Positions 12,976-63,943 of a stretch of DNA of 64,000 nt are shown here, one piece after another. Every line of letters starts with the position of its first letter. Position 1 is the stretch's first letter. Made by a program: the position numbers and the translations under genes. Where the stretch lies: the IMG/VR virus record IMGVR_UViG_3300044712_000786, positions 1 through 64,000 of that record; one strand, written 5' to 3'. The stretch is from a virus. Taxonomy: Duplodnaviria > Caudoviricetes. Below the pieces are notes generated by a model. It made no database searches, was not told the DNA's origin, and saw only the letters and a program-made list of their open reading frames with translations.

Positions 12976-12976
12976 T

Positions 12977-18036: not shown

Positions 18037-18037
18037 T

Positions 18038-29384: not shown

Positions 29385-29807
29385 ATGGCAGAACTTTTAT
29401 GCAAAGCTGTTTCAGCGAGCCACTCTGACCCAGTCAAAGACCAACGTGGTTGTTACAAAATCGGTATGATTGTAGAAATCAGGCCCGATGGATGCATTTA
29501 TGGAACCTCAGAAGGGCTACCTACCTTCTTTAAGATTAAGATACCCTTAGTCCCAGTTGACCACCCCTTGCTTCTTAAGCTGATGGATATGCAAAAATCT
29601 GGGGAAACCATTACAAGGCGGCGTAAGTGCTGGCTGCAACACGCCAACATCCCCCTAGCTGCTCGCAATAAGCTTCGCGATACTGGCGAGCTAATCATTA
29701 AGGCTAGCGCGGCTTATAGTGGACCGTTTGATTATTCTTGGACCCAAATCAAGAACTATCTATGGGACGATGACGCACAAGCTAACTTTACTGATGACAT
29801 TAGCTAA
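29385..29807 (+). CDS. Hypothetical protein
   Basis: Strong SD (TAGGAG); stop/start overlap TAATG with the next gene. Confidence 0.65.
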   Translation: MAELLCKAVSASHSDPVKDQRGCYKIGMIVEIRPDGCIYGTSEGLPTFFKIKIPLVPVDHPLLLKLMDMQKSGETITRRRKCWLQHANIPLAARNKLRDTGELIIKASAAYSGPFDYSWTQIKNYLWDDDAQANFTDDIS

Positions 29808-44677: not shown

Positions 44678-45424
44678 ATGAAAAAACTACATGAATTCAC
44701 AGTAAACAAAGAACAAGAAGTTGACGAAGCTATTGTTAGCAAAGACGAAAAGGGTCAGGAAATTACCACTATTACTAAGGTAAAGAAGCCCGTTCCCCAA
44801 AAGTTTTTCCTAGCTAAGCCAACTCGTTCCTTATATGACGAAGCGGACCTATTCTACGCCGTAAAGCTATCTGAAGGCATTAAGGCGGGGCTGCTAACTA
44901 AACCCCTGCTGGCTAAGCGTTATGCTAACGATGGCGGCTCCATGAGCGAACCAGAAAAGCAAACCTACGCTAACTTATATGTTAATCTGTTTGAAAAGCA
45001 GAGCGAATATCAGAAATTTATTTCCGAGAAGCCTGAGACAGAGCGCACGGCAGAAGATAAAGCTAAGATTAGCGAGATTCTTAAGGATTTAACTAATCTT
45101 CGTCAGCAAATTCAAGAATTTGAGCTATCTCAATCTAGTTTGTTCGACCAAACCGCCGAAAGCAGAGCTAGGAATAAGACTATCCTTTGGTGGGTTCTTT
45201 TCCTTTGTCACAAGGTAGAAGGGGATAAAGAGCTTCCCTATTTCGGTGAAGGGGACTATGACTCTAGGCTAGCTAAATATGACGAGATAGAAGAAATAGA
45301 AGACCAGTTCGTTACTGATACTGTGTCCAAGTTCCTTTACTACGTAAGTTTCTGGTATATGGGTAAAGCGTCCAATCCCGAAGATTTTGCCATGTTAGAT
45401 AAGCTCCAAGAAGAAAATAAATAG
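44678..45424 (+). CDS. Putative tail assembly chaperone
   Basis: Acidic helical protein between tail tube and TMP. Confidence 0.5.
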   Translation: MKKLHEFTVNKEQEVDEAIVSKDEKGQEITTITKVKKPVPQKFFLAKPTRSLYDEADLFYAVKLSEGIKAGLLTKPLLAKRYANDGGSMSEPEKQTYANLYVNLFEKQSEYQKFISEKPETERTAEDKAKISEILKDLTNLRQQIQEFELSQSSLFDQTAESRARNKTILWWVLFLCHKVEGDKELPYFGEGDYDSRLAKYDEIEEIEDQFVTDTVSKFLYYVSFWYMGKASNPEDFAMLDKLQEENK

Positions 45425-45429
45425 TCCTA

Positions 45430-46434
45430 ATGTTCGATAAGTTTCAAGAAGTTAAATTAAAAATAGCTCTCTTTGAAATTATTCGGGGGTTTACAGTAAT
45501 TGACGTAGGTAGGCATAAGTCTATCTACGTCAAACACTTTACATTCATCGATACTGCCAGTATTGATTTAAAATATGCCGAAGCTTACAAATTCGCTATA
45601 GGTAAAGGCTTGCCCCTTATAGACGAACAGATAAAAACCGCTATTGGCAATAATACATGGACGGAAAAACAGGAAAAAAGATATTCGGAAATTCCCGCCG
45701 AAATCAATACTCTTAAACTAACTAAATCTAAGCTATTTTTAAAAAGGGAACTAGACTCTATTAACTCCGAAATAGAGACGCTGGAAAAAGAGCTTCTTCG
45801 CTTGGAGTATGAGCGTTCTGAGGTAGTAGGTTATACAGCGGAAATATTTGCTACTAAAAAAGCAAATGAACATGCTATTTATTACTCATTCAGGGGTAAG
45901 AACTTAGATACATTTTACTTCTCGGAAGAAGAATACGAAACCTTCTCCAACGAAGAAATTAGCAATCTTATCGTGGGACACGCAGGTTATGTAGCCAAAT
46001 TTACTCCGAAAGAAATGAAGCGTATAGCTATTTCTACGGCTTTCATGAATATGATATATCTAGCTGGAGAAGATATCATGTCATTCTTCGGGAAACCCGT
46101 CTTAGAGCTAACTAATAGACAGATGGAAGTCTATAATTTAGGGCGTTATTTCAAAAATCTAATGGCTGAATATAAGGGAACTATTACGGATGATTTACTA
46201 GCGGACCCAGATAAGTTTATCGAAGCGGCAGAAAATACCAAAACAGCCCAAAATTTCGCAGATAAATTAGATAATAAAGAATCTTCTGGAACAGCTATTG
46301 TAGGCGCTACTAAAGAAGATATCGAAAAACTAGGACTTACTAAAGAAGCTGGAACCATCAGTTTGGCAGACGAAGCCTCTAAAAAGGGCGGCAGCTTGAG
46401 TATGGAAGAGTTAATGAAACTCCACGGATATTAA
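45430..46434 (+). CDS. Putative tail assembly chaperone (second)
   Basis: Immediately before TMP; coiled-coil segment. Confidence 0.45.
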   Translation: MFDKFQEVKLKIALFEIIRGFTVIDVGRHKSIYVKHFTFIDTASIDLKYAEAYKFAIGKGLPLIDEQIKTAIGNNTWTEKQEKRYSEIPAEINTLKLTKSKLFLKRELDSINSEIETLEKELLRLEYERSEVVGYTAEIFATKKANEHAIYYSFRGKNLDTFYFSEEEYETFSNEEISNLIVGHAGYVAKFTPKEMKRIAISTAFMNMIYLAGEDIMSFFGKPVLELTNRQMEVYNLGRYFKNLMAEYKGTITDDLLADPDKFIEAAENTKTAQNFADKLDNKESSGTAIVGATKEDIEKLGLTKEAGTISLADEASKKGGSLSMEELMKLHGY

Positions 46435-46478: not shown

Positions 46479-49400
46479 ATGAACTTAGACGGAAAATTAG
46501 TAATTGGTGCGGACGTAACCCCAGCCCTTAATGAGATAGTAAGGATGGCGGGTAAGCTGCCCCCCTTCAAAATTAGAGTAGACACCCGAAATTTCCCATT
46601 AGGCTCAATGGCGAAATCGGCTGACCAGTTTGCTCAATCCATTCAGGCCGCTAATCAACGTGTGTTAGCTTTCGGAGCTTCGGCGGGAACCATTTACGCA
46701 ATAGAAAAAGCTTTTAGATTCCTAGTATCTTCTACTATCGAAGTAGAAAAGAGACTTACTGAAATCAATGTAATTTTGGGGGCTTCTAGCTCGAACTTAA
46801 AACAATTCAGTAATGAATTATTTAACATTGCCAAAACGACTGGTCAAAGCTTTGATGAAGTATCTAAAGCAGCCCTAGAATTCAGCCGTCAAGGTTTGGG
46901 AGTAACTGAAACTTTAAAAAGAACTCGTGACGCCCTTATCCTGACCCGTCAAACTGGTATTGATGTTGGCGAGGCGGTTAGCGCCATCACCGCTACTTTA
47001 AACAGTTTTACTAAAGCTGCTTATGATTCTACTACGGTAATTAATAAGTTAGCTAAAGTTGACCAAAACTTTGCTGTTAGTGCAGGCGACTTAGTCGAAG
47101 CTATTAAGCGCGTAGGTAGCTCCGCTGAAGACGCGGGAGTTTCCTTGGATGAACTTATCGCTATGGTAACCTCTGCTCAACAGATTACCGCTCGTGGAGG
47201 TTCTGTTATTGGTAACGCCTATAAGACTATCTTTACTAGGTTACAACGTCCTGAAGTATTGAACCAGTTAGAGGAAATTGGTGTAGCCGTTAGAGATAAC
47301 AGTAACGCTATTCTTCCCGCTATTAAAATACTGGAGAACTTCTCTAAGTCCTATGATAACCTTAATCAGTCTCAGAAATCCGCCGCTACTGAATTAGTCG
47401 GTAGCGTTTATCAGATTAACGTTTTAAAAGCTGGATTGAAAGACTTGGGGAGTAGCTATTCTTTCTACGAAAGAGCTTTAAATGACTCCGCTTCCGCTAC
47501 TGATGAAGCTATCCTTCGTAACGAGAAGATGAATAAGTCTATCGCTGCAATGGTGAACTCTACTAAGGAAAGTTGGAAACAACTTTCTGCTGATATTGGC
47601 GAGCAAGCTATTGGCCCAGCTATTAAAAGGGCTTTGGGGGCTTTTGATTTTGCTGCTGGTGGATTAAGCGAACTCTTTTCCAAAAACAAGGGCTCTGGAG
47701 AACAATCAGTTAATATTGGTAAAGACATCGGTCAAGGAATTCTAAAGGGACTTTCTCAATTTATAGAAGGACCGGGATTAGCTTTGGTTGGCTTAGTAAT
47801 GTTTCGCTTCGCTAAAACATTTACTAAATTTGCGATTGATTCTGCTAAAGTAGTTGGCGAACTTAATAAAAATATAGAAAATCGGGCTATCTTGGAAAGC
47901 GAAATTGCGACTGTTTTAGCTCAACAACCTAAAATCTACGAAAGACTTCTAAGCGGAGAGATTACCCGAGAACAAGCGGAAAGGGAAGTTCTTACTATTA
48001 TTAGAAATCAAAATGCCGCCTTAGATATCCAAAAGGGTATTATTACTAGCATGGGAACTTCTATTTCTACTCGTGGAGCAGCGGCAGTTACAAGAGATAA
48101 AAAGGTTGTTGTGGCTGCTTCTAGAGGATACATCCCAAACTTCGCAAACCCCGTTCTTACTGAAAGGGCGGGGGCTTACAAAGCTGGTTACGTGCCGGGA
48201 AAAGTTAAACTTTTCGAAAATAAAGTCATTAATGATGCGGAAAGAGTTATTCCTCCTTCTAATCTAAAAAATCTGGGCTCGACAGCTAATACTTCTGCCA
48301 TCGTCCCTCCTTTAGCTAGCCCCGCTGGACAGGTTTATAAAGCTGCTTTTAAGACTATGTCGGGAGTAGATTTAGCTACTGGACAAAAGGGTTTCATGTA
48401 TGGAAGAAATTACTTTCAACGCGAATGGATTAAAAGCACGGCTAAAAATAGAAAGCTGAGCGTTAATGACCCCGATGTTATTATGACTTTGGGGAAGGAA
48501 TTCGCGAATAAATATGGAACTAAACAGGGGTTCCTTGCTGTAAATAAAGGTTTTGTACCTAATTTCGCGCAGTACCAGTATCCTACCATTGCTGCTATAA
48601 GGAAGCAGCGTCCTCAATTAGGGGATATCTTGAAAAATGCTCCTACAGTTTGGGGGCAGGCTACTGGACAGAGATTCCTTAATCATGATTTGACAGGCGA
48701 TAAAATCCCCATCAGCTATAGAGATAATATTAACTTAGGGGATATGATGAATAACATCCTAGCGAAAGGTAAATTCAGGGCTAGTGAGGGATTCGTTCCT
48801 AGTTTCGCTTCCTTTAAAGAATATAAGGGTATCGGTCTAACCGCCAGAGTCCCCGATAGCGAAATCCTTGACCCCGAAGCTGCTTCAAAATTTGCTCAAA
48901 AACTTTCCTTAGATGGAAACGTATCTACTTTGCTGAAAGTTATTCGTAAAGTTGCACCTAAAAGCCCCGCGCTCGAAGATAATTCTTTGAAATTTGAAGT
49001 AAACTCGGGACTTAGATTTGGTAACGATTTTAAAGCTAGTGGCTTATATCAGTCTGATAATGATACAATATCTATATCCTCTTCTGCTAGAAGCCAGACC
49101 CTAGCTCATGAAATGGGGCATATGGTAGATATATCTTCATTCAGTGATTTTTATAAACAGTCGGGTTTTTCAAGAAAAAAACTTATCAACGCATTAAGAA
49201 GGGACCAAATAAAGTTTAAATCTCGACCTTATTTAATGACTGGAGCTTTTGACGGAGACATGGTTAGAGACATGCTAATGATGTATAGAAGCCCAGATAA
49301 AAGAAATAAGGAAGCTATTGCTGATATTTTTGCGGATTCTGGAAGGATATTCAATCCCAAAATGGAGGATTATAGTCATAAAAAGTATCTAACTACTGGT

Positions 49401-52400
49401 GAAGCGCCGAAAATGATTCGCAAAGGGATTAAGAAAATATTAGGATTAAAATCTAGCGGATTTATTCCTAACTTTGGACCCATCAAAGACCCCTATAAGG
49501 TAAATCCTATTTATCATGTACTAGAGACGATTAGAAAATCAAGTGGCAGCGATTATCAAAATAATTGGGGTGAGCCCATAAACTACGATGAGAGACAAGA
49601 AGAGAATAAAAGACTAATAGCTTCTGTAAAATCTATCGGTTTTGCAGGCTACGGAATCAAAAGTGATAATAAAGATTACCAAATTGGTTCTATGTTTGCC
49701 CCTTATGCTATAACTACTGGATATGAAGAAAAGGAGGTGGCTAAATACATCCCCATGGATAAACTGAAGGCGGCTGGGCTATCCGAAAGACGTATTTATA
49801 AAATGCTCTTTAAAGGAGATAGACTGAGTTCTCGTTTCCAGCAGTATAACGACCCCTTTTCTATCGAATCCTCTCAGGCAAAAATACGCAGAGCCAAAGA
49901 GGGTATCGCCGTTAAAAAAGCCTCTGGAAATACTATAAACCTAAATGCTGCAACATATCTAGCTAGCCGAATGAAGGAAAATAGTCAAGATAAGTGGGCT
50001 CAGCAAAACGCTATTAGCGAAGCTCTTAACACTATAGTTCCTTATCCAGAGCTACAATCTGAGAAACAGGAAGGAAAGGTAGTTAAACAATATCTTAGTT
50101 CAGGCGACAATAAATATAAGCGCGGTTCCCTTAAGGAAACCAAAGAAAAGCTTATGCAATATTTTGGAATCAAAGTAAACAAAACAGACGCCGCAGGAAT
50201 GTTATCTGAGAAACGTCTACTAAGAAGTTTAGGTTTGGCTTCTCGTGGAAGCCCAACTTTAGCAGAGGACAGGGGGCTAGAGCTTAATGACTATAAAAAT
50301 AATCAACAAAGACGTATAACGGTCTCTTCTAAAATAGGTCAATATAGAAAAGAGTTAGAAATAGCTTCTTTAGTTGATAATCCTATATCTCCCGCGATGT
50401 CTTTAGATGACTATAGGCGTTATATTTTAACGCACGGCGCTACTCCAACTACCCCATTTTCGAGGGTAATTACTCAGTTACAAAGGGCGTCTGCTAAGGA
50501 GGACAAGGGGGATAGAAAAACTAATCTAGAATATGCATTACGAAGTATAGCGGGGGGAAGTGTATCATCCACTGCCACAATTAGAAATTTGCCGCGCCTA
50601 AATAAAATATTTCCAGAATTGAAATTGACAAATAAAGAAATTATTAGAGCTTTCAAAAATTCCACTTATGGAAAAATATTCCGACCCGCAGAACAAAAAC
50701 CGTCTATTTTAGGTCAAACGATGGAGTCCCTTAAGGCATTTAAAGGCTTTAGGTCAACTCAAGCAAAGGCTAGATTAGGTAGAGGGGAAGTAAAAGGCGT
50801 TACTCAAGATATGTTCAATTCGGATATAACCCCTTATGCATCATTCTCTATTATTCAAAGGGAAACCCCTAAAAATATACAAGATATCTTATTTAATCTA
50901 GAAAAATCATTTGCCGACAGAGTCAGTCAATCCAAGCTGCTATTTAGAGGCTCTAGTATAATTGAGCCAATGCTAGTTAATCTATTAGGTTCATTTACTT
51001 CTCTAGGAGGTAGGACAGACGAAAAAAGAATAAGGTCTTATCTTACTTCTTCTATTGTAAAATCCGCTAGTTACGGACTTAGCTCTCCGATAGGGGATAA
51101 AAAAGGCGTAGTAAGCATTTATTCTCGACCAATATTGGAAAATTTAGGACTGCTTCAATCTGGTTTAGTTCCTAGTAATGAACAAGCTAATTCTGTTGTT
51201 GCAGAAAGGCTACATAGAAAAGCTTTAATGGGGGTATTAAATCTAGAGAATGGCAGACTGCTTAAGCCAAAAGACTTCATGTCTTCAGTAAGAGATATAG
51301 AAATACCAGAAGAACTGATTCAATTTAATAGGGGACTAAACGAGTTAGCTTCTGGCTCTATTATAAATCGAGCAAGTCCTAAAATAACCTCCACTCCGAT
51401 GGGCGGGGTTATGAACCTATATCGAAAAGTAGAAACAAGTGGAATGACGCCAAGACAAAAAGATTTTAGAGGGCCTAAAACACCGCTGCCTTTCGAAGAT
51501 ATAAAGGGCTGGGATAGCGAGCGAATGGTTAAATACCTACGAAGTTCTCTAGGTGATACTGAAAGGGGAGTAGCTCCATTTGGTTCAGAACATTCTTCTT
51601 ATTTCGATTTAAGATACATGTCTTTTACTGATAGGAAGATGAGAAAAGATATTGCAGAAGGTAGAGTTAGTCTTCAAGATTACTCTTCTATTATTTTCCA
51701 AAGAAAAGTTCCCGTTCAGGAACTTGTAACCCCAGAAAACTTGGGCGATATAATGACTTCTGGGGAAGCTACTAAAAAGAAAATATTTGATAGGGGCGTG
51801 TTTTTTGACCTTCCTCGGTTTAGAGATAAGTTCGGAATTAGTGAACATACTTCAGAACGCGAATATCCATTTTTAACAACTGCTCCCGCTGGAAAAGTAT
51901 CTAACTTCGGTAAAATTTTCGGGCTTTCGAGAAGTAAGGGATATGTTCCTAATTTTGCCTATATTCCCGGCATAAGTCAATTAGCTGGAAGACTACTTAC
52001 TAATATAACTCATACCGAAAGCTATGGGTTAAAAGAAAGAATGGATTCCATCAAACAATTAAAACTTAAAGACTATATTGGGGCTCTGGTAAAAGATATA
52101 CCTACCCCCGCTGCATCCCCTAAAGGAGAGGTATGGAATACTTACGATAGGGATATCCTATTCCGTTCGGTCTTTAAATTGCCACATAGAGTTCTAATGC
52201 CCGAAAATCAAGACTTTCTTAAGTCTAGAAAATTAGTTAAAACTTCTGATAGTACATATAGGTTGACTAACAAAGGACGCATACTAAGTAATGCTTTACA
52301 AAGTCTATCTCAAGGCAAGTATGCTCCACAACCTAATAACCCCAACGAGCTTTATATTCTAGGCCAAAATAAAACTATGGGGGGTTTTGACTTTACGATT

Positions 52401-55400
52401 AACAAAGACCAAAATAAGGTCGGCTATCATGACCTTTGGGATTTCGCCAAAAACCCTTGGGAAAAATTCGATTTCAAAGGCGCGCTAAGTTTTGCTGGCC
52501 AATATGCTAAAAGCGTAGTTAAGAATCGTTCTTTTGGAATGACTGACGAATTAAGGTCTCACCCCTTTGTAGCGGAAGATAACTCGATGTATCGCCAAAG
52601 CCCAGCTTCTATGTTGGCTAGAATGGCAATTAGTCCGTTTGCTAGACCTGTTCGAGTTCAAGACTCTTTCTCCCCTCTAAGTAAAGAGAAAGTAGAAAGA
52701 CTGCAAAAACTCAAGTCCTCTTCTTCATATGGAAGCAAGAGACATAAAGTTTATAATCAAGCTCTAACAGATGATAGCCTAGTAAAGCAACTGCTAGAAC
52801 TAGCAAAAAATCCCCCTCCTTCTGTAGGCATAATGAATAAAGGCTTTGTTCCTAATTTCGTTCTACCCAACAAGGGTTTCTTGGGCTCTCCATTCCCGTT
52901 TGAAGACTTCAGAAAGCTTAAAACGCTTGAAGAGCAATATAAGTTCATTAAAAGCGAGTTTCCTAAAGTGGGGCTAGCTAACCATCCTATTGGCGAGGGC
53001 TCTTCTCGCGCCGTTTATGGTATCGGCGGTAATATGGTATTAAAAATGGTTAAAGATACCAAGCATATTATCGATGGATATAAAAGCCACCCTCTAAACG
53101 AAGCTATTAGACAGAAAGTTTTACTAAAAGGATTTGCTCAAAATCAAACAGAGGGAAGTCAAATGTTTGCTGGCTTCCGAGACATTGTTCCTTATAACTA
53201 TGAAGTAGACGATAGATTCAAATACATCATAGCCGAAAGAGCAGCGGCAATGACCCAAGCAAATGCGGTTAAATTCGGTTATCCATCTGTTTCCGATGCT
53301 CTATATGAGCCCCGCTTCCGTAGGAGACTTACTTCTCTTTATAAAACGGGAGTAATTCCAGATGAAGGTTCTAAAAACTTTGGATTTATAAGGAGAGGGG
53401 GAGAAAATAGACCCGCGTTAATCGACTATGGATTAGACACTCAAACAGCTAAAAATCTATATGGTTTTACTGGGCAGGATTTTATTTCTAAGGGTTTAAT
53501 CCCGAATTTTGCTATAGAGTTTAAGGATAGAAAGCGCATCTATAAGACAGGCTTTGGTGGAGATACAGAGTTTCTAGAAAAGGTTCTATCTAAAATTAGC
53601 CCCGATACATCCTTACTGCAAGCTACTATTCATGGTAGTAGAGACGAATTATTGCAGCGAGTTACCCCAGCGGAATTAGAAGAAATTCTCGCGCTTAAGA
53701 ATATACCTATTAATAAAGACACTATTGCTCATATTAATATAGTAAAAACCCGTTTCGGTAATCTTCCTCATACCTTTGGTATTCAGCAGAAACTTTCTGG
53801 AAGCACGGCCCCCCTTGTGGTTGTTCCTTCGTTCCCAGACCCAGTAATTAACGCTGAAACTGGATTAGGCACTAAAGAAGGTAGGGGAACACTTATTAAT
53901 ACTATCCTAACGAGAAATCCTCGCGGAGAAGGAATAGTTCGCCCATCAGTAGATAGATTTGGACAGATAATGAAGATTCTCCAAGATAAATGGGGTAATA
54001 CTACAGAAGTTATTGGACTAGAAAGAGCTAGGCAGATGTTCGGCCTAAACGCAAAAAGGAAGGCTAGTGGATTCATTCCTAACTTTGCTGACCCGCTTAA
54101 ACTTGCTATAGCTCGCGAAATAGCCGCTGGTGTTCCAGCTAGCTTAATTAAAGTAGAAAATCACGCAAGTCTTAAGAGCGCAAATAATCCATTGGGATTA
54201 GCGGTTACCAATAAAAGAGACGAGCCCAACGGAGTATCCCAAGGTATTTCCCGCGCTATACGCGAGGGAGCTAACCCTAAAACTTATGGTAGCGGTAGGG
54301 TTCCCAACTTTGCTGACCAACCCCGAATTCTAACTGGCTTAAAGGGAATTTTACAGTCTAATCCCGCAACCGATGCTAACTTCAATCAGGGAGTTAGAGA
54401 CGAAATACTAGAAAAAGCTAAGACCCTAGTATTAAAAATGAAAGATAGTCAGGTTCCTATTGGGGAACTCGGGGTTCAAGCAGATAAGGCAGTTAAACAG
54501 TTTACCAAAATGGTAGCTGGTTTGACTAAGTCTCAGGAAATGATTGACTCATTTTCTAAGTCAATTAGTTATTGGAAGAGAGAAAATCAGAAGAACCGCC
54601 CTTCTACTCCGCTGAAGAATCAAGCGGATATTGGGGCTGGATTAGCTGCCCAAAATGCTTTAGAAGCCGAACTTCAAGCAAAAAGACAAGCTCAAGAAGA
54701 AAGAACTCAAAAGAGAAGATTAGATGCTCAAAGTTTCAAAGAAAAGACAATTACATCTACAGTAGGGCGCATTAATCAAGGCGAATTTATTCCTAATATA
54801 AGAAAGCCTATTTTGGCAGATGAAAGAGTAAGCGGAGCCCTGAAAAATCAAGCGATTTCCGTTGTCTCTGATGGAGGATTTGTATTAAGTGGGGATAGGA
54901 AGAAATACTATGACTGGTTAGCGAAGAACGATAAACAAGCCTTCAGGGGCGCTAAACAAATGAGAAACGCTAATCTCCAAAACAGAGCCTTTGGAGTAAG
55001 TTTCGGGGCTTCTATGGTTGGTGGACTAGCTAGCCAATTTATTGGTGACGCTACTCAAGAAAGAAGAGGATATAGTAAAGCTGTCGAAGGTGGGGCTAAC
55101 ACTCTAGCTATGGGAGCATTAGGCTTTCAGGTAGCTGGGCCAGCAGGAGCATTAGCTTTGGGTGCTGTATCGGGATGGGGTGCTGTTACGGATACTATTA
55201 AAGCCTTTAATGACACTCTTCCTGATTTACAAAAGAATCTGGAAGCTGTAACCGAAAGGTCTACAAGGACTTCAGACGCATTTAGTAAGTTCATACAGAC
55301 TAGCGAACAAATCAATAGTATTTTACTAAGTCCTAAACCGGGAGCAGCTAGAGAGTTACAACGCTTACGCACTCAACAATCTTCGGCGCTCGCAGATATT

Positions 55401-58400
55401 CCAGATAGAGACTCATTTGGTAAGTCTGCACGACAAGACCTATTAGACGCATTTAAAACTGGCGACGTAAACAAACAAATCGAAATCTCCGAAAGAGTAG
55501 CTAAGAGAATAGGAACAGAGAAAACCGCTGCCGAATTAGAAACTGGCTTTGCCGAATATCTTGACAAAAATAAGAAGATAAACAGCGAGGGATTTAGCCG
55601 AATTGACAGCTTTGAAAGGACTCTAAGGAGTTCTGTTAATAAGCAGGGATTAACCTTTGACCAATTCTTAGCTACTAATCCCGGCTCCTTAGACTATATT
55701 AAAAGCTCTGGAAGCGCCGAACAAATGGATTCTCGCCTAAGGGAATTAATTAATAAATTCGACCCTAGCTTTAATACTTCGTTTTCTGGAGCATTAAATA
55801 AACTATTTACAGAAGAAGGACCGCTTAAGCAGAACGCATATAAGAGAGTATTTAGCGGAGCTACTAACGAACAATTGGATAGCGAGCGAAAAGCCCTTGA
55901 ATTAATGAATAGAAATCAAGTAGAAAGCGCTAAATATATCGAATCCTTCGGTAATCAAGTTTTCTTAACTAAGGAAAAATTCCGCTCATTTACTGATGAT
56001 ATCGTCGCCTCGATGGAGAGGTTTAATGCTAATCTGCAAGCCGCAAATGAAAGAATAGATATATTCGGTAAGGGTCTAATTGATTTAAATGAACCTTCCT
56101 TGCGCCCCGAGGGACAACTAAATATTAGTCAGGGATTTAGAGATATACAGACAAAAGCGCAAGCCCAATCTCAATTTTCTCTAATTCAGAAACAGTTTGA
56201 ATCTGCTATGAGCGCTGCCCTAACTAAGGCGGAAACCCAAAGGTTCGACGCATTTGAAAAGTTAATGGGCGAAAAAGCTGGTGTTCTAAGTGGCGCTCAA
56301 CAAGTATCTAACGCCGCTTATACCAACGTTCTTTCTGGCGGTGACTTACTACAAAAACTAAACAATATTAATAATAGGACCGAAGTAACGGGTGGATTAT
56401 CTGAGATTAACAAAATTAATCAAGAATCTATCAGAAACACTTTAGAGGAATTTAACAAGATTGCCCGAGAAAAAGATAGCTCTATTACTGCTTTAATAGA
56501 TACTACCGCTAATAAGTTAGCCGCTCTTGATTTAACCAAGACTTTGGAAACTAGCCGCCTTAACTTGAATCAAAAGTTGAATTACGGGGGCGGGTTATCC
56601 GAAATACTAAATGGTAATATCAAAGCCCAGATGGTTCAGCTAGGAACCTCCGCTAATGTAGCTAATACTCTTAGAAACAGCACTGCTCCCGGTGAAGTAG
56701 CTTATCAAAGGGCTGAAATTCTTAAGAAATTCAACGTAGAAGTTCCCGAAAGCCTTAGGAAAGAACTATTTACAGAAAGTAAAAAGAATTTAACTCAAGC
56801 TGGTTTTTCGATTCCCGATGAGGTAATTCAAAAACAAATAGATTCTACATTCCCTAAATCTGACCCAGAGCGAGAAGCTAAAATAATTAAAGCTATGGAG
56901 GAAATGGCTAAACTAAGCCTCGCTGCTGTAAATGAAGAGTCATTAATCAAGCAAACCGAGCTAAGTATTGCTACTCAAACCCAGATTAACACTAAGAATA
57001 TATCTGATGGAATAGCACAAATATTAAAAGATGGATTGAAGGTAAGCGAATCTAAGAACACTAAAGATAGTCCCGCTCCTAGCTCATTTGAAATGCCAAT
57101 GTCTTGGGACATGCCTGCTAATCCGATGCTAAAGTATGATATTGGCTCAGTTTCTAAATCTATTAAATCTAAGGAAGAAGAATTTAAGAAAATAGAAGAT
57201 AATCCTGTAATGACTGTAATGCAGCGCGAAGGATGGTCTCCGTTTGCCGAAGCTAAACCTAAAAAACTTTATACTTTTTCTGATTTAAGGGAGATGGAAA
57301 GACTACAGGGAGAAATTGATAAAGATAAAACGACTCTTGCTAAAATCAAATTAGACGCCGCCAGAAATCAAATCTCTATTCCGTTTGGAATGTCACAAGA
57401 CTGGGAAGATAGCAAACCTAGCAAAATTACCCCTAATATAGGAACAACGAAAGCTAACTTAGGTTATTACGGAGGGATGGCTTATGATTTACCGATGCCG
57501 ATGACCCCTTCTCTGCCAGTCTATAATAACAAGAATATTATTACTCTAGCGGAAATTAAAGCTAAACAAATTAACGCAGCTAACGAAAAGAACTTCGGGG
57601 ATGTTATAAGGGAAGGACCGTTGCCTATTTCAACTACGGACCCAACTGCTCGACCACAAGCTAAAAATACTAGATACGCGGCAGAATTAAGACAGAGAAT
57701 AGAATTAGACGCCGCTACTAAAGATTATATAGCTAGCACGAAAGAATTAACAGAAGCTATGTATGGTGCCGTTGGAGGTTTTACTACCTTTAATGATACC
57801 ATTATCTCTACTCAAAAAACTCTAATTGACTTTGCGGGGTCAGTAAAAGAAGGTTTCCATGACTTAATTGGCTTAGCTATAAGAGGAACGGGCGATATTG
57901 AGGAAAGATTCCGCGAAATGTTCGAGGAAATACTTAATAAAGCCGCAACAAATATGGCTTCTAGCGGACTTGACTTTGTATTTAGCCAAGTTACTAAGGG
58001 TATTGGAGTTGAAAGCCTATTCAAGAATAAGGGCGGTTATATTCCTCGATTCTCTGAGGGTGGAGTAGTAAGAGGGGGTTCGGGAACTAAAGACGATGTT
58101 CTAGCTCAGCTTAGCGGCGGCGAATACGTTATCAATAGGTCCGCTGCTGAAAAAATTGGTTATAAAAACCTAGAAGCAATTAATAAAGGAGGTTCTTCGG
58201 GCGGTCCTTCTAACTGGGACGCTTTTGGGGCTGCTGGTGGAGCCGATTCATTTATTAATCAGCGCTCTAGCGGGATTACCGCTCATTTACAGAATGCTTA
58301 TCGATATAATGACCCTCGTCAGCCAACTGCTGGAGAGGTTGTAGTTGACCCTAGGTTGTCTATCCAAGCTCTAACTGACATGGATAATCCTCAAAGCAGG

Positions 58401-59213
58401 ATTAGAATGGAAAGGGAAGAGAATCTATTAAACTACATAACAGATAAACAAGATTTTCAAAAAGCCCAAGACAAGGCTCAGAAACAGTATAAGGAAGGTC
58501 TATGGTGGAGCTTTGGAACATCTTTAGCTGGCGCTGCTGGCAATACTTGGGCAGCGGGAGCTAAACCTAATACTTTAGGTGGCAAAGACTTTAAGGGAGC
58601 TTATGATACCTCTACTTCGGCTGAAGGCGCTGATTGGTCTAATCCCGGCTTTGAATACGAAAGATTCCAGTGGGATAGTAGTGTATCTCGCAGACCCCTA
58701 ACCCGTAATTCGGGAGGTTCTATCAATTCTAAGACAGCTTTATTAACTGGGGGCGAATATGTTATGTCGCCTGCTACTGTAAGCCGCCTAGGGGTGTCTA
58801 GAATGAATACCTTGAACGCTGGACACGTTCCCACTTTCGCTCTAGGAGGGCTTATGGGCTCTTCTAACGCTGGAAGCTCTCCAGACTCACTTAAGGAGTC
58901 TATAGACAAGCTAGTAGCCGTTTCCCAAGAGATACGGGGCACCCTAGAGGGTAAGGATACTAAAACGGGTAATAAAGATTCGGCACCCGCTATATCCAAT
59001 AACGTTAATATAACTATTTCTGTTACTCAGACTGGAAAAGTCAACTCAGACACTCAAGTTTCGTCTGGTGCAGGGGCTTCCGAGAAGGAAGACAAGAATA
59101 AGAAGCAGGACGAATACAAGAAACTTGGTATGATGATTGAAAACAAGGTCTTGGAAGTTATTGTTCAGGAGCAGAGACCGGGGGGTCTGCTTTATGATTC
59201 CGAATCTCGTTAA
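46479..59213 (+). CDS. Giant tape measure protein (TP901-type N-terminus) carrying a polyvalent effector-like cassette array
   Basis: N-terminal TP901-family pattern (FNIAKTTGQSFDEVSKAALEFSRQG...GGSVIGNAYKTIFTRL); C-terminal GG..G.G...D...A.L..GEYV motifs; internal motif-delimited domains. Confidence 0.9.
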   Translation: MNLDGKLVIGADVTPALNEIVRMAGKLPPFKIRVDTRNFPLGSMAKSADQFAQSIQAANQRVLAFGASAGTIYAIEKAFRFLVSSTIEVEKRLTEINVILGASSSNLKQFSNELFNIAKTTGQSFDEVSKAALEFSRQGLGVTETLKRTRDALILTRQTGIDVGEAVSAITATLNSFTKAAYDSTTVINKLAKVDQNFAVSAGDLVEAIKRVGSSAEDAGVSLDELIAMVTSAQQITARGGSVIGNAYKTIFTRLQRPEVLNQLEEIGVAVRDNSNAILPAIKILENFSKSYDNLNQSQKSAATELVGSVYQINVLKAGLKDLGSSYSFYERALNDSASATDEAILRNEKMNKSIAAMVNSTKESWKQLSADIGEQAIGPAIKRALGAFDFAAGGLSELFSKNKGSGEQSVNIGKDIGQGILKGLSQFIEGPGLALVGLVMFRFAKTFTKFAIDSAKVVGELNKNIENRAILESEIATVLAQQPKIYERLLSGEITREQAEREVLTIIRNQNAALDIQKGIITSMGTSISTRGAAAVTRDKKVVVAASRGYIPNFANPVLTERAGAYKAGYVPGKVKLFENKVINDAERVIPPSNLKNLGSTANTSAIVPPLASPAGQVYKAAFKTMSGVDLATGQKGFMYGRNYFQREWIKSTAKNRKLSVNDPDVIMTLGKEFANKYGTKQGFLAVNKGFVPNFAQYQYPTIAAIRKQRPQLGDILKNAPTVWGQATGQRFLNHDLTGDKIPISYRDNINLGDMMNNILAKGKFRASEGFVPSFASFKEYKGIGLTARVPDSEILDPEAASKFAQKLSLDGNVSTLLKVIRKVAPKSPALEDNSLKFEVNSGLRFGNDFKASGLYQSDNDTISISSSARSQTLAHEMGHMVDISSFSDFYKQSGFSRKKLINALRRDQIKFKSRPYLMTGAFDGDMVRDMLMMYRSPDKRNKEAIADIFADSGRIFNPKMEDYSHKKYLTTGEAPKMIRKGIKKILGLKSSGFIPNFGPIKDPYKVNPIYHVLETIRKSSGSDYQNNWGEPINYDERQEENKRLIASVKSIGFAGYGIKSDNKDYQIGSMFAPYAITTGYEEKEVAKYIPMDKLKAAGLSERRIYKMLFKGDRLSSRFQQYNDPFSIESSQAKIRRAKEGIAVKKASGNTINLNAATYLASRMKENSQDKWAQQNAISEALNTIVPYPELQSEKQEGKVVKQYLSSGDNKYKRGSLKETKEKLMQYFGIKVNKTDAAGMLSEKRLLRSLGLASRGSPTLAEDRGLELNDYKNNQQRRITVSSKIGQYRKELEIASLVDNPISPAMSLDDYRRYILTHGATPTTPFSRVITQLQRASAKEDKGDRKTNLEYALRSIAGGSVSSTATIRNLPRLNKIFPELKLTNKEIIRAFKNSTYGKIFRPAEQKPSILGQTMESLKAFKGFRSTQAKARLGRGEVKGVTQDMFNSDITPYASFSIIQRETPKNIQDILFNLEKSFADRVSQSKLLFRGSSIIEPMLVNLLGSFTSLGGRTDEKRIRSYLTSSIVKSASYGLSSPIGDKKGVVSIYSRPILENLGLLQSGLVPSNEQANSVVAERLHRKALMGVLNLENGRLLKPKDFMSSVRDIEIPEELIQFNRGLNELASGSIINRASPKITSTPMGGVMNLYRKVETSGMTPRQKDFRGPKTPLPFEDIKGWDSERMVKYLRSSLGDTERGVAPFGSEHSSYFDLRYMSFTDRKMRKDIAEGRVSLQDYSSIIFQRKVPVQELVTPENLGDIMTSGEATKKKIFDRGVFFDLPRFRDKFGISEHTSEREYPFLTTAPAGKVSNFGKIFGLSRSKGYVPNFAYIPGISQLAGRLLTNITHTESYGLKERMDSIKQLKLKDYIGALVKDIPTPAASPKGEVWNTYDRDILFRSVFKLPHRVLMPENQDFLKSRKLVKTSDSTYRLTNKGRILSNALQSLSQGKYAPQPNNPNELYILGQNKTMGGFDFTINKDQNKVGYHDLWDFAKNPWEKFDFKGALSFAGQYAKSVVKNRSFGMTDELRSHPFVAEDNSMYRQSPASMLARMAISPFARPVRVQDSFSPLSKEKVERLQKLKSSSSYGSKRHKVYNQALTDDSLVKQLLELAKNPPPSVGIMNKGFVPNFVLPNKGFLGSPFPFEDFRKLKTLEEQYKFIKSEFPKVGLANHPIGEGSSRAVYGIGGNMVLKMVKDTKHIIDGYKSHPLNEAIRQKVLLKGFAQNQTEGSQMFAGFRDIVPYNYEVDDRFKYIIAERAAAMTQANAVKFGYPSVSDALYEPRFRRRLTSLYKTGVIPDEGSKNFGFIRRGGENRPALIDYGLDTQTAKNLYGFTGQDFISKGLIPNFAIEFKDRKRIYKTGFGGDTEFLEKVLSKISPDTSLLQATIHGSRDELLQRVTPAELEEILALKNIPINKDTIAHINIVKTRFGNLPHTFGIQQKLSGSTAPLVVVPSFPDPVINAETGLGTKEGRGTLINTILTRNPRGEGIVRPSVDRFGQIMKILQDKWGNTTEVIGLERARQMFGLNAKRKASGFIPNFADPLKLAIAREIAAGVPASLIKVENHASLKSANNPLGLAVTNKRDEPNGVSQGISRAIREGANPKTYGSGRVPNFADQPRILTGLKGILQSNPATDANFNQGVRDEILEKAKTLVLKMKDSQVPIGELGVQADKAVKQFTKMVAGLTKSQEMIDSFSKSISYWKRENQKNRPSTPLKNQADIGAGLAAQNALEAELQAKRQAQEERTQKRRLDAQSFKEKTITSTVGRINQGEFIPNIRKPILADERVSGALKNQAISVVSDGGFVLSGDRKKYYDWLAKNDKQAFRGAKQMRNANLQNRAFGVSFGASMVGGLASQFIGDATQERRGYSKAVEGGANTLAMGALGFQVAGPAGALALGAVSGWGAVTDTIKAFNDTLPDLQKNLEAVTERSTRTSDAFSKFIQTSEQINSILLSPKPGAARELQRLRTQQSSALADIPDRDSFGKSARQDLLDAFKTGDVNKQIEISERVAKRIGTEKTAAELETGFAEYLDKNKKINSEGFSRIDSFERTLRSSVNKQGLTFDQFLATNPGSLDYIKSSGSAEQMDSRLRELINKFDPSFNTSFSGALNKLFTEEGPLKQNAYKRVFSGATNEQLDSERKALELMNRNQVESAKYIESFGNQVFLTKEKFRSFTDDIVASMERFNANLQAANERIDIFGKGLIDLNEPSLRPEGQLNISQGFRDIQTKAQAQSQFSLIQKQFESAMSAALTKAETQRFDAFEKLMGEKAGVLSGAQQVSNAAYTNVLSGGDLLQKLNNINNRTEVTGGLSEINKINQESIRNTLEEFNKIAREKDSSITALIDTTANKLAALDLTKTLETSRLNLNQKLNYGGGLSEILNGNIKAQMVQLGTSANVANTLRNSTAPGEVAYQRAEILKKFNVEVPESLRKELFTESKKNLTQAGFSIPDEVIQKQIDSTFPKSDPEREAKIIKAMEEMAKLSLAAVNEESLIKQTELSIATQTQINTKNISDGIAQILKDGLKVSESKNTKDSPAPSSFEMPMSWDMPANPMLKYDIGSVSKSIKSKEEEFKKIEDNPVMTVMQREGWSPFAEAKPKKLYTFSDLREMERLQGEIDKDKTTLAKIKLDAARNQISIPFGMSQDWEDSKPSKITPNIGTTKANLGYYGGMAYDLPMPMTPSLPVYNNKNIITLAEIKAKQINAANEKNFGDVIREGPLPISTTDPTARPQAKNTRYAAELRQRIELDAATKDYIASTKELTEAMYGAVGGFTTFNDTIISTQKTLIDFAGSVKEGFHDLIGLAIRGTGDIEERFREMFEEILNKAATNMASSGLDFVFSQVTKGIGVESLFKNKGGYIPRFSEGGVVRGGSGTKDDVLAQLSGGEYVINRSAAEKIGYKNLEAINKGGSSGGPSNWDAFGAAGGADSFINQRSSGITAHLQNAYRYNDPRQPTAGEVVVDPRLSIQALTDMDNPQSRIRMEREENLLNYITDKQDFQKAQDKAQKQYKEGLWWSFGTSLAGAAGNTWAAGAKPNTLGGKDFKGAYDTSTSAEGADWSNPGFEYERFQWDSSVSRRPLTRNSGGSINSKTALLTGGEYVMSPATVSRLGVSRMNTLNAGHVPTFALGGLMGSSNAGSSPDSLKESIDKLVAVSQEIRGTLEGKDTKTGNKDSAPAISNNVNITISVTQTGKVNSDTQVSSGAGASEKEDKNKKQDEYKKLGMMIENKVLEVIVQEQRPGGLLYDSESR
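48126..54311 (+). repeat. Nine dispersed G-[FYLR]-[IV]-P-[NS]-F linker motifs within TMP
   Basis: Motifs start at 48126, 48549, 48789, 49458, 51939, 52842, 53493, 54069 and 54294. Related copies at 58035 (GYIPRF) and 58821 (GHVPTF). Confidence 0.9.
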
Positions 59214-60072
59214 TCTGTTCTCTTAAGCTGATAATCTCACGCTCAAGCATGTTAATAGCCTGATTATAAACAACATCTATAGTCAGGCTGTTTTGCATCA
59301 TCATAGGAAGCTCTAAAACGGGGGTAAAATCTCTCGAAATTGAATAGGGAGCCCTATTTACTAAATTTGGGTATAGCGTATTAAGAACAAGCTTCCATTT
59401 TTTAACAGATAGCTTGCCCGAAGATAGCCCTTCTTGGATAGGGTTACTTACTATAATAGTAGAAGTGTTATCCTGAGAGCTTAAGGAGGATACTTCGCGC
59501 TCTAATACGAGGGCTTCATCTAAAACGCTAAAGCTAATATCGAATACAGCCCCCTCTCCAGAGCCCCCCTTCATTTTACATTCTCCTTCAGGCGCTTTAA
59601 TATACAAACCTCTATTCTTTACCCCTATACGAGATATTACCCCACCTTCTTTGATGTTGGTAACGATTATCTTAGTAGAAAGATACTCCCCCTCTTTTAC
59701 GTCAAGGGAGGGTATGCCAGCATCTACGCTCAAAATATCCCCTACTTTATATCCAGAACCATTGTTAAGAATAGCGGTAACTATGTCCATTTCATACTGC
59801 GGGAAACTTAGAAAAATAGAATCCCCATATTGAAGCTTTGGAATGACATCTTCAGCTATGGAAATACATTTAGAATCTACTACCTTGAAATCCCAAGCTA
59901 ACTCTTCCTTTGAAGCGAAGTTAATGACATAGAAAGCATTCTCTTTATTGACCCGTAAATAGCTGCCTTCTCTGACCTTAGATAGGTCATCTAGGGTACA
60001 ACAATACGCTTCATTAGTATTGTTTTTAATCGAAAGAGAACTTCCGTTAAACAAACTTCGTGGATTAATCAT
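59158..60072 (-). CDS. Virion structural protein (baseplate/tail-associated)
   Basis: NNGSGYKVGDILSV...GGSGEGAVFD motif common in phage structural proteins; C-terminal coiled coil. Confidence 0.45.
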   Translation of the reverse strand: MINPRSLFNGSSLSIKNNTNEAYCCTLDDLSKVREGSYLRVNKENAFYVINFASKEELAWDFKVVDSKCISIAEDVIPKLQYGDSIFLSFPQYEMDIVTAILNNGSGYKVGDILSVDAGIPSLDVKEGEYLSTKIIVTNIKEGGVISRIGVKNRGLYIKAPEGECKMKGGSGEGAVFDISFSVLDEALVLEREVSSLSSQDNTSTIIVSNPIQEGLSSGKLSVKKWKLVLNTLYPNLVNRAPYSISRDFTPVLELPMMMQNSLTIDVVYNQAINMLEREIISLREQINEIRNHKADPPVSAPEQ

Positions 60073-60074
60073 TT

Positions 60075-62612: not shown

Positions 62613-62627
62613 ATACCTTAAAGTAGT

Positions 62628-62633
62628 TTACAC
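62628..62633 (-). promoter_or_regulatory. GTGTAA putative late promoter
   Basis: TTACAC on the + strand, 15 nt upstream of the ATG at 62612; overlaps the TAG of the upstream gene. Confidence 0.6.
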
Positions 62634-63943
62634 TAATAAATGAATCGTCGGGCGCTCTCTAATAGAATTCTATCCCCGTTTTCAAACAATAAATAGCCTG
62701 TTTCTGCTAATGCATCGAATTGTAGCAAATTAACATAAGCTGAAGAATTGAGTCCCAAAACACCGCTAATAAATAACCCCTTGGATAAGTCTTGAGGGTC
62801 TATTTCTGTTTCAAAATCGAATCTAGCTGTTTTATTAGCTCCGATTCCGTCTCTAAATGACACGCTATTTAATTTCGACTTTCTAAAAGCATAAACTACC
62901 TTTAAACTGTTCCTGTTACTACCACTTATGTCTATATTAAAATGATTATCATTGGCAAAAAACGAACCAATGGAGCCAGTTACTACATCATTTATCATCG
63001 CCTCAAAAGACAGGTTGACAAACACTGGTAAATTAATAACCCTATCCATGGGAGCCGTATACCCTAAATTAGTCAACGGTAACCTATTTAAGTCCATAGA
63101 CCATTCATAGGATTGTAATGACATAGAGCTAGAAGTAGTACCCAAATAACTATCTAATCCCGAGATATTTACCTTAATGTCTCCCGGTAATATAACGCTG
63201 GCGTAATTTCCAGAATCGAACATCGAAGGCAGAGAAAATCTTTGTTGAGCCCCTGAATAAGTTCTAGGGTCAATAGCGGGGACCATAATATTATCTGCCC
63301 CGCTGTTATAAGACATGTGTTCAGCTATATAAGAAACGGTGGTTTGAGGAAAAGCCCCCACCGAAGCAGAAGTTCTATAGGAAGTAAGATAACAATTACC
63401 AAAACCCAATGTATCGACATCACTTCTTCCGCTCACTCCATAAACATCCGTATTTAAATCTTGATTATCGCGAGCAATGCCCACAAAAATATTCCTACAA
63501 TCTCTATATCTCTTAGGCCAGCCCAGAGAACTATCAGAGCCGTCTTGTCTAGTTAGAAAACCAGATATAAGACATACGTTGTAATTATCTGGAAACGCCT
63601 GTCCACTATCATAATGGTTAATATAAAATCCCATCCTAACTTCATTAATAGGGTTGAAGTTAAGATAAGAGAAGCTAAGGCTAACACTGGGCGGCTCTAT
63701 CATTACGTTAGCAGCCGTTCCCATTTTTCCTAAAGAATAAACCTTTGTCCTTGCGGCGGAAATACTATAATCAAATGAGTTAATCCTATGTAATGGAAAG
63801 ACTAAGTTCTGATAATCTCCGCTAAGTAAACCATTATTACCAGTGCAAAACACCCCATAGTTATCCATGATATGGTAACCAGTGGCAGGAGCAGGGCCTA
63901 TAAAGACGCCCTGAACATTATAAATGATTCTATTCCTTGGCAT
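62633..63943 (-). CDS. Paralogue of the major tail tube protein
   Basis: MPRNRIIYNVQGVFIG vs MARNRVIYQSEGVFVG; GFGNCYLTSY vs GFGNGYLSSY; KGLFISG shared. Confidence 0.75.
   Translation of the reverse strand: MPRNRIIYNVQGVFIGPAPATGYHIMDNYGVFCTGNNGLLSGDYQNLVFPLHRINSFDYSISAARTKVYSLGKMGTAANVMIEPPSVSLSFSYLNFNPINEVRMGFYINHYDSGQAFPDNYNVCLISGFLTRQDGSDSSLGWPKRYRDCRNIFVGIARDNQDLNTDVYGVSGRSDVDTLGFGNCYLTSYRTSASVGAFPQTTVSYIAEHMSYNSGADNIMVPAIDPRTYSGAQQRFSLPSMFDSGNYASVILPGDIKVNISGLDSYLGTTSSSMSLQSYEWSMDLNRLPLTNLGYTAPMDRVINLPVFVNLSFEAMINDVVTGSIGSFFANDNHFNIDISGSNRNSLKVVYAFRKSKLNSVSFRDGIGANKTARFDFETEIDPQDLSKGLFISGVLGLNSSAYVNLLQFDALAETGYLLFENGDRILLESARRFIY

Follow-up and report, generated by a model that had tools for sequence, protein, structure and literature searches.

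Results

The tape measure gene and its internal motifs

The window analysed in this study is the stretch of 64,000 nucleotides (nt) at positions 1 to 64,000 of IMGVR_UViG_3300044712_000786, an IMG/VR virus record of the Caudoviricetes (Duplodnaviria). At 46479..59213 on its plus strand lies a gene for a tape measure protein (TMP) of 4244 amino acids (aa), P0001, whose middle is an array of unrelated protein segments separated by a short recurrent motif. An initial annotation of the window, made from its letters alone, had described an open reading frame (ORF) of this size with normal TMP ends, and both ends bear the description out. The PhageMin_Tail family PF10145 matches aa 118–305 with 101.8 bits against a cut-off of 33.2, and the N-terminus also matches TMP families of PHROG, down to E 7e-49. 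At the other end, eleven TMP PHROGs match the last 445 residues (aa 3800–4244), the best being phrog_3547 with E 5.8e-15; the C-terminal matches reach aa 3853–3907 and about aa 4081–4126. The N-terminal TMP module, referred to as module A, occupies aa 1–549 (46479..48125). The C-terminal TMP part, recognised by its composition and the PHROG matches, occupies aa 2612–4244 (54312..59213). All features of this gene given below are on the plus strand.

Between these two parts, a search with the pattern G.[IV]P.F finds nine copies of the motif, referred to as joints, which together span nt 48126–54311. They are GYIPNF at aa 550 (48126..48143), GFVPNF at aa 691 (48549..48566), GFVPSF at aa 771 (48789..48806), GFIPNF at aa 994 (49458..49475), GYVPNF at aa 1821 (51939..51956), GFVPNF at aa 2122 (52842..52859), GLIPNF at aa 2339 (53493..53510), GFIPNF at aa 2531 (54069..54086) and GRVPNF at aa 2606 (54294..54311). 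The nine near-identical motifs of the initial annotation are all present where it had placed them, and they far exceed chance: in 2000 shuffles of the protein the mean is 0.06 copies and the maximum two. When the whole 202.7-kb genome is read in six frames, the TMP gene is the only long open frame in which the motif occurs. Beyond the nine, two degenerate copies, GYIPRF at aa 3853 (58035–58052) and GHVPTF at aa 4115 (58821–58838), are located in the C-terminal region that is matched by the TMP profiles.

The joints divide the middle of the protein into eight cassettes, s1 to s7 and a closing cassette, B. These stretches measure 69–821 aa, and none of them resembles another by BLASTP at E 1e-4, in agreement with the earlier description of unrelated segments of about 70–820 aa.

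A family of giant tape measure proteins

Relatives were collected by a word-seeded search with the array, which returned 18 giant TMPs of 2432–4604 aa, all of them metagenomic. A second search, seeded on cassette B, enlarged the set to 90 proteins. The array found no match by tblastn among 50,697 phage records of GenBank. This TMP family is known only from metagenomes and comprises at least 90 members.

The members have a common layout, which consists of module A, an array of 0–13 cassettes, a B of 77 aa, a final motif and a C-terminal ruler. Module A measures about 540–690 aa and is 36–45% identical to that of the window's protein across the 18 relatives of the first search, and the C-terminal part ranges from about 1,000 to 2,100 aa across the family. 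Cassette B is 50–71% identical across relatives, which exceeds the conservation of module A. In 78 of the 90 proteins no other internal cassette follows B, and all 18 proteins of the first search contain it. Duplicated copies of B were observed in P0003, P0006 and P0024.

The joint itself is recurrent throughout the family, with 529 copies in the 90 proteins (median 5 and maximum 14 per protein). Its consensus, derived from 107 copies in the first 19 proteins, is x-A-[AS]-[KSG]-G-[FLY]-[IV]-P-N-[FY]-A, and it is preceded by 10–15 residues rich in K, S, G and N. The composition of these 19 proteins predicts 0.008 copies. When one position of the motif is freed at a time in the same set, G is kept in 97 of 98 copies, P in 97 of 97 and N in 97 of 101, and the last position is F in 97 and Y in 17. 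Distant members, for instance P0022, leave the second position free and retain a constant core of G-x-[IV]-P-N-F-A. P0022 is a protein of 5468 aa with 14 strict motif copies and three cassettes containing HExxH. P0024 (3063 aa) has a joint relaxed to x-[IV]-P-N-F-A, from which the Gly is often missing.

Cassettes are gained, lost and replaced at the joint

The initial annotation had proposed a plug-in array in which the motif is the standard joint, and had suggested aligning orthologous TMPs for conserved flanks with cassette turnover at the motif. Such flanks and such turnover were found when the comparison was carried out. All proteins were cut at the motif and the pieces were clustered with at least 60% coverage of both partners. 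The 439 internal cassettes of the 90 proteins, with a median length of 180 aa, fell into 126 families, 83 of which were seen once. The ordinal place of a recurrent family in the array varies, and so do its many neighbours; the 16 members of family 7, for instance, have nine distinct left neighbours, and B has 41.

A test that is independent of cutting at the motif gives the same picture. In whole-protein BLAST comparisons, the limits of alignments that begin or stop inside the array lie within 10 aa of a motif for 68% of starts and 79% of ends, compared with 11% for random points.

Pairs of closely related proteins display the exchanges directly. P0011 and P0012 are 99.5% identical in module A and 99–100% identical in three cassettes, and P0012 has an additional cassette of 195 aa after module A. 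Between two cassettes that both possess, the place of a pair of cassettes in P0011 (330 and 189 aa) is taken in P0012 by a single, unrelated one of 279 aa. At these junctions identity begins or stops within the motif itself. Similarly, P0004 and P0007 share 97.6% identity in A and 96% identity in B, and have two and four cassettes before B, respectively. Order changes as well: P0002 contains homologues of s4 and s5 at 30–48% identity, with the s4 homologue on the other side of the s5 homologue, the reverse of the order in the window's protein. The flanks are thus kept while cassettes are gained, lost, replaced and reordered exactly at the motif, and a fixed, collinear middle region is not what near-identical relatives present. 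There is very little doubt that a combinatorial array of cassettes, delimited by a motif selected as a peptide, exists in this family of TMPs.

Selection on the joint acts on the peptide and not on the DNA, because its codons vary at background usage. The nine copies in the window differ in synonymous codons. Among 32 copies from four loci, codon use is that of the gene background, and two copies share about 14 of their 18 nt on average. The idea that the motif is a repeat of the DNA or a signal for recombination was dropped for this reason. It is nevertheless necessary to consider that the array might be tolerated filler, in which insertions alter the length of the tail, the motif is a hot spot of DNA recombination, and the domains hitch-hike or decay. 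TMPs tolerate large insertions and deletions, half of the cassettes were seen once and have no recognisable family, and breakpoints do fall inside the motif. However, the codon statistics leave no DNA-level repeat to drive recombination, and the frames are open throughout 2,000–4,600 aa. We regard this explanation as very improbable. The breakpoints within the motif are explained in another way by the combinatorial array, since a junction at the motif keeps the frame and whole domains in any exchange.

The joint behaves like a short linear motif that opens each cassette after a flexible linker and is predicted to be unstructured. In an AlphaFold2 (AF2) model of aa 1360–2130, the fifth joint (aa 1821–1826) lies in a linker with a predicted local distance difference test (pLDDT) score under 50, between two folded parts. 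The joints that flank B are modelled without regular secondary structure. A likeness of [IV]-P-x-F to the C-terminal tails of FtsZ or SSB was set aside, for the match is too short to weigh.

Contents of the cassettes

The first two cassettes, s1 (aa 556–690; 48144..48548) and s2 (aa 697–770; 48567..48788), have no Pfam or PHROG assignment. The first 80 or so residues of s1 belong to a recurrent family of first cassettes with 31 members, and s2 was seen only in this protein.

Cassette s3 (aa 777–993; 48807..49457) is a candidate zincin metallopeptidase, with the motif HEMGH at aa 877–881 (nt 49107–49121). Its profile matches are weak (DUF6782, E 0.077; PHROG 4728, E 7.9e-4; PHROG 87, a metallo-protease, E 0.029), and feature leads from the Atlas point to peptidase clusters at 0.89–0.93. 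Stand-alone homologues of s3 were not found by word-based search.

Cassette s4 (aa 1000–1820; 49476..51938) is multi-domain and common to P0002, P0020 and P0021; before about aa 1360 it has no family match. An exhaustive HMMER search with s4 and s5 against 1.84 billion representatives returned 11 proteins including the query, and all but one of the other ten are giant TMPs with the motif or fragments of such TMPs. Since the matches are nearly all giant TMPs, cassettes s4 and s5 were not found as free genes. The AF2 model mentioned above was built from a shallow alignment of 12 rows and covers the second half of s4 and s5. Its mean pLDDT is 67, and values are mostly 80–95 over model residues 50–270.

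Within this confident part, aa 1481–1599 (50919..51275; model residues 122–240) are modelled as a domain of the ADP-ribosyltransferase (ART) fold. The closest structure is Tpt1 (8tg6), with a VIA-align Z of 10.9 and a root-mean-square deviation of 2.0 Å over 96 aa. Next to it stand heat-labile enterotoxin A and the Rhs toxin TreX (Z 7.7 each), pertussis toxin S1 (Z 7.5) and cholera toxin A1 (Z 7.2), followed by Scabin and DarT. An exhaustive search of 48,161 chains that was independent of Foldseek gave top matches that are almost all of the ART fold, with KptA first at Z 9.8, and clusters of the AlphaFold database agree. By alignment, an F-R-G containing R1490 is kept in six of six homologues of the domain, which are 26–39% identical, and T-S-S at 1522–1524 (a strand followed by a helix) and N-E at 1566–1567 are kept in five of six. 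R1490, T-S-S 1522–1524 and E1567 are candidate catalytic residues, and the domain is probably an active ART. Tpt1/KptA uses a different catalytic set. The retention of candidate catalytic residues at such low identity stands against decay of the domains as mere filler.

The initial annotation had read enzyme active-site motifs in several cassettes, and this reading holds in part. The HEMGH of s3 and the kinase-type motifs of s6 are present and the ART fold is supported, whereas SEREY, whose E-R-E (aa 1793–1795) had probably been taken as the ‘ExE’, is outside the fold in a stretch of low confidence; E1567 is the likelier catalytic Glu. The cassettes had also been described as something other than helical TMP repeats, and those that were modelled are indeed alpha/beta domains.

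Cassette s5 (aa 1827–2121; 51957..52841) is such an alpha/beta domain in the AF2 model. It is 48% identical to aa 1156–1463 of P0002, and its other homologues are only giant TMPs or fragments. The model has confident sheets, and no fold match was obtained above Z 4.5.

Cassette s6 (aa 2128–2338; 52860..53492) is taken to be protein-kinase-like, with moderate confidence, from its motifs together with weak profile and feature matches. The motifs occur in the order GEGSSRAV at 2172 (Gly-rich loop), VLKMVK at 2187, D-x4-N at 2294 and IDYG at 2314. PHROG 4301, a family without functional annotation, matches with E 8.4e-5. Atlas features at 0.92–0.94 lead to clusters of the SteC effector kinase (0.94), Kinase-PolyVal and the T7 kinase, the Kinase-PolyVal lead being at rank 33 in a cluster of which 80% is so annotated. 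A high-scoring segment pair aligns aa 2171–2612, from s6 through s7 and B, with aa 1215–1618 of P0006 at 28% identity, and P0006 matches the ABC1 kinase family of Pfam at about aa 1251–1360 with 19.8 bits, below the cut-off of 22.9.

Cassette s7 (aa 2345–2530; 53511..54068) was seen only in this protein and has no Pfam, PHROG or Atlas lead. The closing cassette B (aa 2537–2605; 54087..54293) is modelled as a small alpha-beta-beta-alpha domain with a pLDDT of 81–91, and its invariant residues are R-E ... N..DEP.G..QGI.RA. No sequence or fold relative of B was found in the PDB or by Atlas fold searches. PDB sequence searches with the array and with a profile of B returned nothing meaningful.

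Cassettes of the relatives include further enzymes. SNase is above the Pfam cut-off in P0010 and P0013 and belongs to a cassette family of 12 members. A GNAT acetyltransferase cassette reaches 23.7 bits against a cut-off of 20.7 and has seven members, and a P-loop cassette gives a weak match. Precomputed Pfam matches in relatives are PF02557, PF01464 and PF00182, which we take to be VanY, SLT and GH19, all presumably cell-wall hydrolases. HExxH was found in 13 of the 439 cassettes, distributed over 10 of the 90 proteins.

These contents raise the possibility that the cassettes are a toolkit for penetration of the envelope and assembly of the tail, which would act in the periplasm or cell wall, or in the producing cell only, and would not supply effectors to the cytoplasm. 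Mycobacteriophage TM4 and many siphophages have TMPs that carry muralytic motifs. The presumed VanY, SLT or GH19 domains in some relatives fit such a role, as does SNase, a secreted type of Ca2+-dependent nuclease. On the other hand, ART-fold, kinase-like and GNAT cassettes need the cytoplasmic compounds NAD+, ATP and acetyl-CoA, and no cassette of the window matches a cell-wall hydrolase family in Pfam or PHROG. Moreover, the 83 families of single occurrence and the rapid turnover resemble an arms race rather than a conserved task of penetration. A toolkit of this kind is therefore considered improbable as the role of the array.

Composition and hydrophobic segments

The C-terminal part is low in Pro, has almost no His and is rich in A, E, K, Q, L and R. 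The segments between the motifs exceed the flanks in Pro, aromatic residues and His, and His is nearly confined to the cassettes. Cysteine is absent. There is none in the 4244 residues of the window's TMP, against 1.38% in the other ORFs of the genome of at least 150 aa, and in the family as a whole there are 11 in 278,500 residues, with none at all in 84 of the 90 proteins; the comparison is one between the other ORFs of this genome and this family. The exclusion extends over the cassettes, which indicates selection on them and is not expected of filler. Avoidance of cysteine would also suit exposure to the periplasm, as a toolkit for envelope penetration would experience.

A hydropathy scan identifies moderately hydrophobic Gly/Ala-rich segments on both sides of the array. 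One is in module A at aa 424–446 (47748–47816), and the others are at aa 2837–2905 (54987–55193). They bracket the array, one just before it and the others 230–300 aa after it, and transmembrane-like segments occur at similar places in most of the relatives checked.

Phage genome and neighbouring genes

The window belongs to a complete virus record of 202,704 bp with direct terminal repeats, rated 100% complete. The phage occurs in metagenomes of the rhizosphere; at least 77% of the sampled words are present in each of three runs, two of which may be the source of this DNA. Contigs of the same phage from four rhizosphere runs showed no cassette variants or other differences, and none of the listed sequencing runs that hold the stretch is on record as RNA.

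The phage carries lambda-like tail-tip genes. Its Phage-tail_3 gene, presumably of the lambda gpJ family, is at 12977–17080, apart from the TMP gene. One relative, L007, has genes matching the Pfam families Phage_min_tail, Phage_tail_L, NLPC_P60 and Phage-tail_3, which we take to be the families of lambda gpM, gpL, gpK and gpJ, shortly downstream of the TMP; the tail-tip genes of the window (10140–21919) are instead about 29 kb upstream of it. Among them, at 18038–21919, is a gene for a protein of 1293 aa with a BppL_N match. The sheath model PF04984 of Pfam matches nothing in the genome, which fits a siphovirus, with a divergent sheath still possible.

Directly upstream of the TMP gene, at 44678..46434 on the plus strand, are two conserved ORFs of 248 and 334 aa. 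Of four relatives examined, three have ORFs of similar size (about 250–280 and 330–350 aa) immediately before the TMP, and the fourth, L008, has different genes there. The proteins of two relatives are 26–42% identical to those of the window. The two ORFs have no family match, and judging from their position they may encode tail assembly chaperones. A predicted complex of the two proteins with B and its two motifs scored 0.00 in a run without controls and counts neither for nor against binding. The TMP gene is followed by genes on the opposite strand (minus-strand genes at 59158–63943).

Other large genes of the window were observed as well. An ORF of 1368 aa at 29807–33913 contains 23 cysteines (1.68%) and has no family match, and one of 1065 aa at 33913–37110 matches Gly_rich_2 and an EndoS-type leucine-rich repeat below the cut-off; both may be large fibre or receptor-binding proteins. 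At 4948–8277 on the minus strand is a gene for a protein of 1109 aa with an IPT/TIG domain, and at 1126–3072 on the plus strand one for a protein of 648 aa with a sub-threshold match to glycosyltransferase-1. On the contig of P0002, two genes after the TMP and on the opposite strand, is a gene of 447 aa with a match to Mtd_N, which we take to be the major tropism determinant, a target of diversity-generating retroelements.

Nine contigs with cassette B (L010–L018) were binned in metagenome-assembled genomes (MAGs) of several phyla. Their labels are Flavobacterium, Flavobacteriales, Flavobacteriaceae, Halobacteriovorax, Cellvibrionales, Saccharibacteria, Marinimicrobia and Verrucomicrobiales, and three of the nine are Flavobacteriales/Flavobacteriaceae. 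They are probably phage contigs that were swept into the bins, and the labels give a weak hint of Bacteroidota hosts.

Discussion

The TMP occupies the tube of the tail; on ejection it goes out before the DNA and inserts into the envelope (PMC7824862, PMC13277306), and cassettes carried by a TMP would consequently be stored in the tube and ejected from it. The array would be cargo, held in the lumen of the tube and ejected first, along with the TMP, into the envelope and cytoplasm of the host. Since ART, kinase and GNAT enzymes need NAD+, ATP and acetyl-CoA, cassettes of these types must act in a cytoplasm, and that of the newly infected cell would be the simplest site. They may act there as early enzymes of takeover or counter-defence, as the initial annotation had proposed and as has been considered for injected polyvalent proteins (PMC5512222). 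With hydrophobic segments before and after it, the array could form a loop that stays on one face of the membrane. The chain would have to remain extended or able to refold as it crosses the oxidising periplasm, and in the near-absence of cysteine it would escape cross-linking there. On balance we consider this reading as a whole, including delivery of the array as cargo, to be somewhat probable.

The most speculative step concerns the motif, which would be a recognition site for one conserved partner. Our tentative preference, held at well below even chances, is that it is a processing site at which the cassettes are released, in the manner of a polyprotein. One form of this proposal, which we find rather unlikely when taken with all its parts, makes the TMP a magazine of polyprotein cargo and the joint a release signal, cut by a protease of the phage or the host or by Asn-mediated self-cleavage, so that up to eight or more enzymes would be freed. 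The joint would then allow phages to swap cassettes in frame, as a protein-level counterpart of the integron, and B might be the reader or organiser of the joints. Cleavage after the Gly, with F, L or Y exposed as an N-degron, was considered and dropped, since P0022 and other distant members put no constraint on the second position.

Alternatively, the motif might be a docking site for assembly or loading, without any cleavage, and the TMP would stay one chain after ejection. The partner in this case may be the two proteins encoded upstream (the putative tail chaperones), the lumen of the tube or cassette B, and by binding it would hold the cassettes in solution, in register from one TMP chain to the next, and have them enter the tube in single file. 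In lambda, gpG and gpGT attach to the TMP at numerous sites. The motif is a short linear one of hydrophobic-aromatic character and lies in a flexible linker rich in lysine, as would suit docking; since its number per chain varies, it does not serve as a length ruler. The upstream ORFs, kept at similar size in three of four relatives and in sequence in two, agree with this possibility, and a median cassette of 180 aa, or about 20 kDa, would be roughly admissible to a lumen of about 4 nm by our own size argument. Against it, no partner was identified and the upstream ORFs are without a family assignment; docking by itself also leaves the near-invariant G, P and N across 126 unrelated cassette families unexplained. 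Docking without cleavage is a doubtful but serious explanation. It is compatible with delivery of the array as cargo and differs in the role of the motif only. A purely structural joint is less likely than either processing or docking.

Several observations weigh against the interpretation of the array as delivered cargo with a processing site at its joints. No cassette of the window attains a Pfam threshold, and the ART, kinase and peptidase calls come from one AF2 model with a shallow alignment, from motifs and from feature leads. The closest structure of the ART domain is Tpt1/KptA, so its target could be nucleic acid or protein. SNase and cell-wall hydrolase cassettes could have their site of action elsewhere than in the cytoplasm. 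Self-processing by a peptidase among the cassettes had to be dropped as a general mechanism, with HExxH occurring in so few of the proteins, and neither a partner nor a protease for the motif was found. Part of the universality of B comes from the design of the second search, for which B was the seed. Packaging of the cassettes, their ejection and their arrival in the cytoplasm are deduced from the TMP nature of the carrier. Finally, a narrow lumen must accommodate several chains, each with about 2,000 non-helical residues, for which there is only a rough argument of volume: by this estimate, three chains with some 2,000 residues each could be packed in about 100 nm of a lumen of about 4 nm.

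The nearest known systems share some features with this array and lack others. Polyvalent proteins combine ART, kinase, metallopeptidase, nuclease, acetyltransferase and lysozyme domains in one chain, and for them entry into the host with the DNA and later processing into units has been proposed (Iyer, Burroughs, Anand, de Souza and Aravind 2017, PMC5512222). The likeness is that unrelated domains of effector type occur in one giant polypeptide and are extensively shuffled. The carrier, however, is a TMP here, whereas PMC5512222 has no mention of tape measure proteins and the phage cases it gives are associated with proteins of the head or virion. No -PolyVal family of Pfam (MPTase-, ART- or Kinase-PolyVal) matches the cassettes of the window at E up to 1, and the metallopeptidase, a hallmark of polyvalent proteins, is rare, with HExxH in 10 of 90 proteins. 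A strict short motif separates the domains in our family, while PMC5512222 mentions no such motif and does not contain the word ‘linker’.

Known enzyme-bearing TMPs, such as those of TM4 and other siphophages with peptidoglycan-hydrolase motifs (alluded to in PMC13277306), contain a muralytic module or two, and neither a repeated delimiter nor a combinatorial array is known in them. They resemble the present family in that an enzymatic module is placed inside a TMP and delivered on ejection. Unlike them, the present family has up to 13 cassettes, drawn from 126 or more families, and some of these enzymes depend on cofactors of the cytoplasm. Sle1 is a TMP-related cargo effector of actinobacterial contractile injection systems, whose domain is proposed to adapt its shape to the lumen of the tube and fold after ejection, and which has been called a ‘reconfigurable platform’ (Nagakubo et al. 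2026, PMC13277306). Here too, a TMP-like carrier has an exchangeable functional domain. In contrast to our family, Sle1 carries a single C-terminal module on a short coiled coil and belongs to a phage-tail-like particle that the producer makes; a delimiting motif is not reported for it (PMC13277306). Viral polyproteins are comparable by analogy only, in that unrelated units are joined in one reading frame with a short conserved peptide between them; unlike those with repeated protease sites, the TMP array is known here from its sequence, and cleavage and a protease are hypothetical. We found no description in the literature of a motif-delimited array of multiple cassettes in a phage TMP, nor of the motif itself.

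The findings have several implications. The near-absence of cysteine is a simple signature that may help to find other cargo delivered by tails. The joint marks natural domain boundaries, and could guide the engineered loading of cargo into phage tails. The storage of about 2,000 globular residues per chain in a tail tube is a physical question that the array raises. The cassettes, with at least 126 families of which most are without known fold or function, constitute a pool of candidate counter-defence activities. The usual view of the TMP is that it measures the tail and forms a channel. Should the cassettes be delivered, the TMP of these phages would also be a high-capacity and rapidly reconfigurable carrier of enzymes for host takeover or anti-defence in the first minute of infection.

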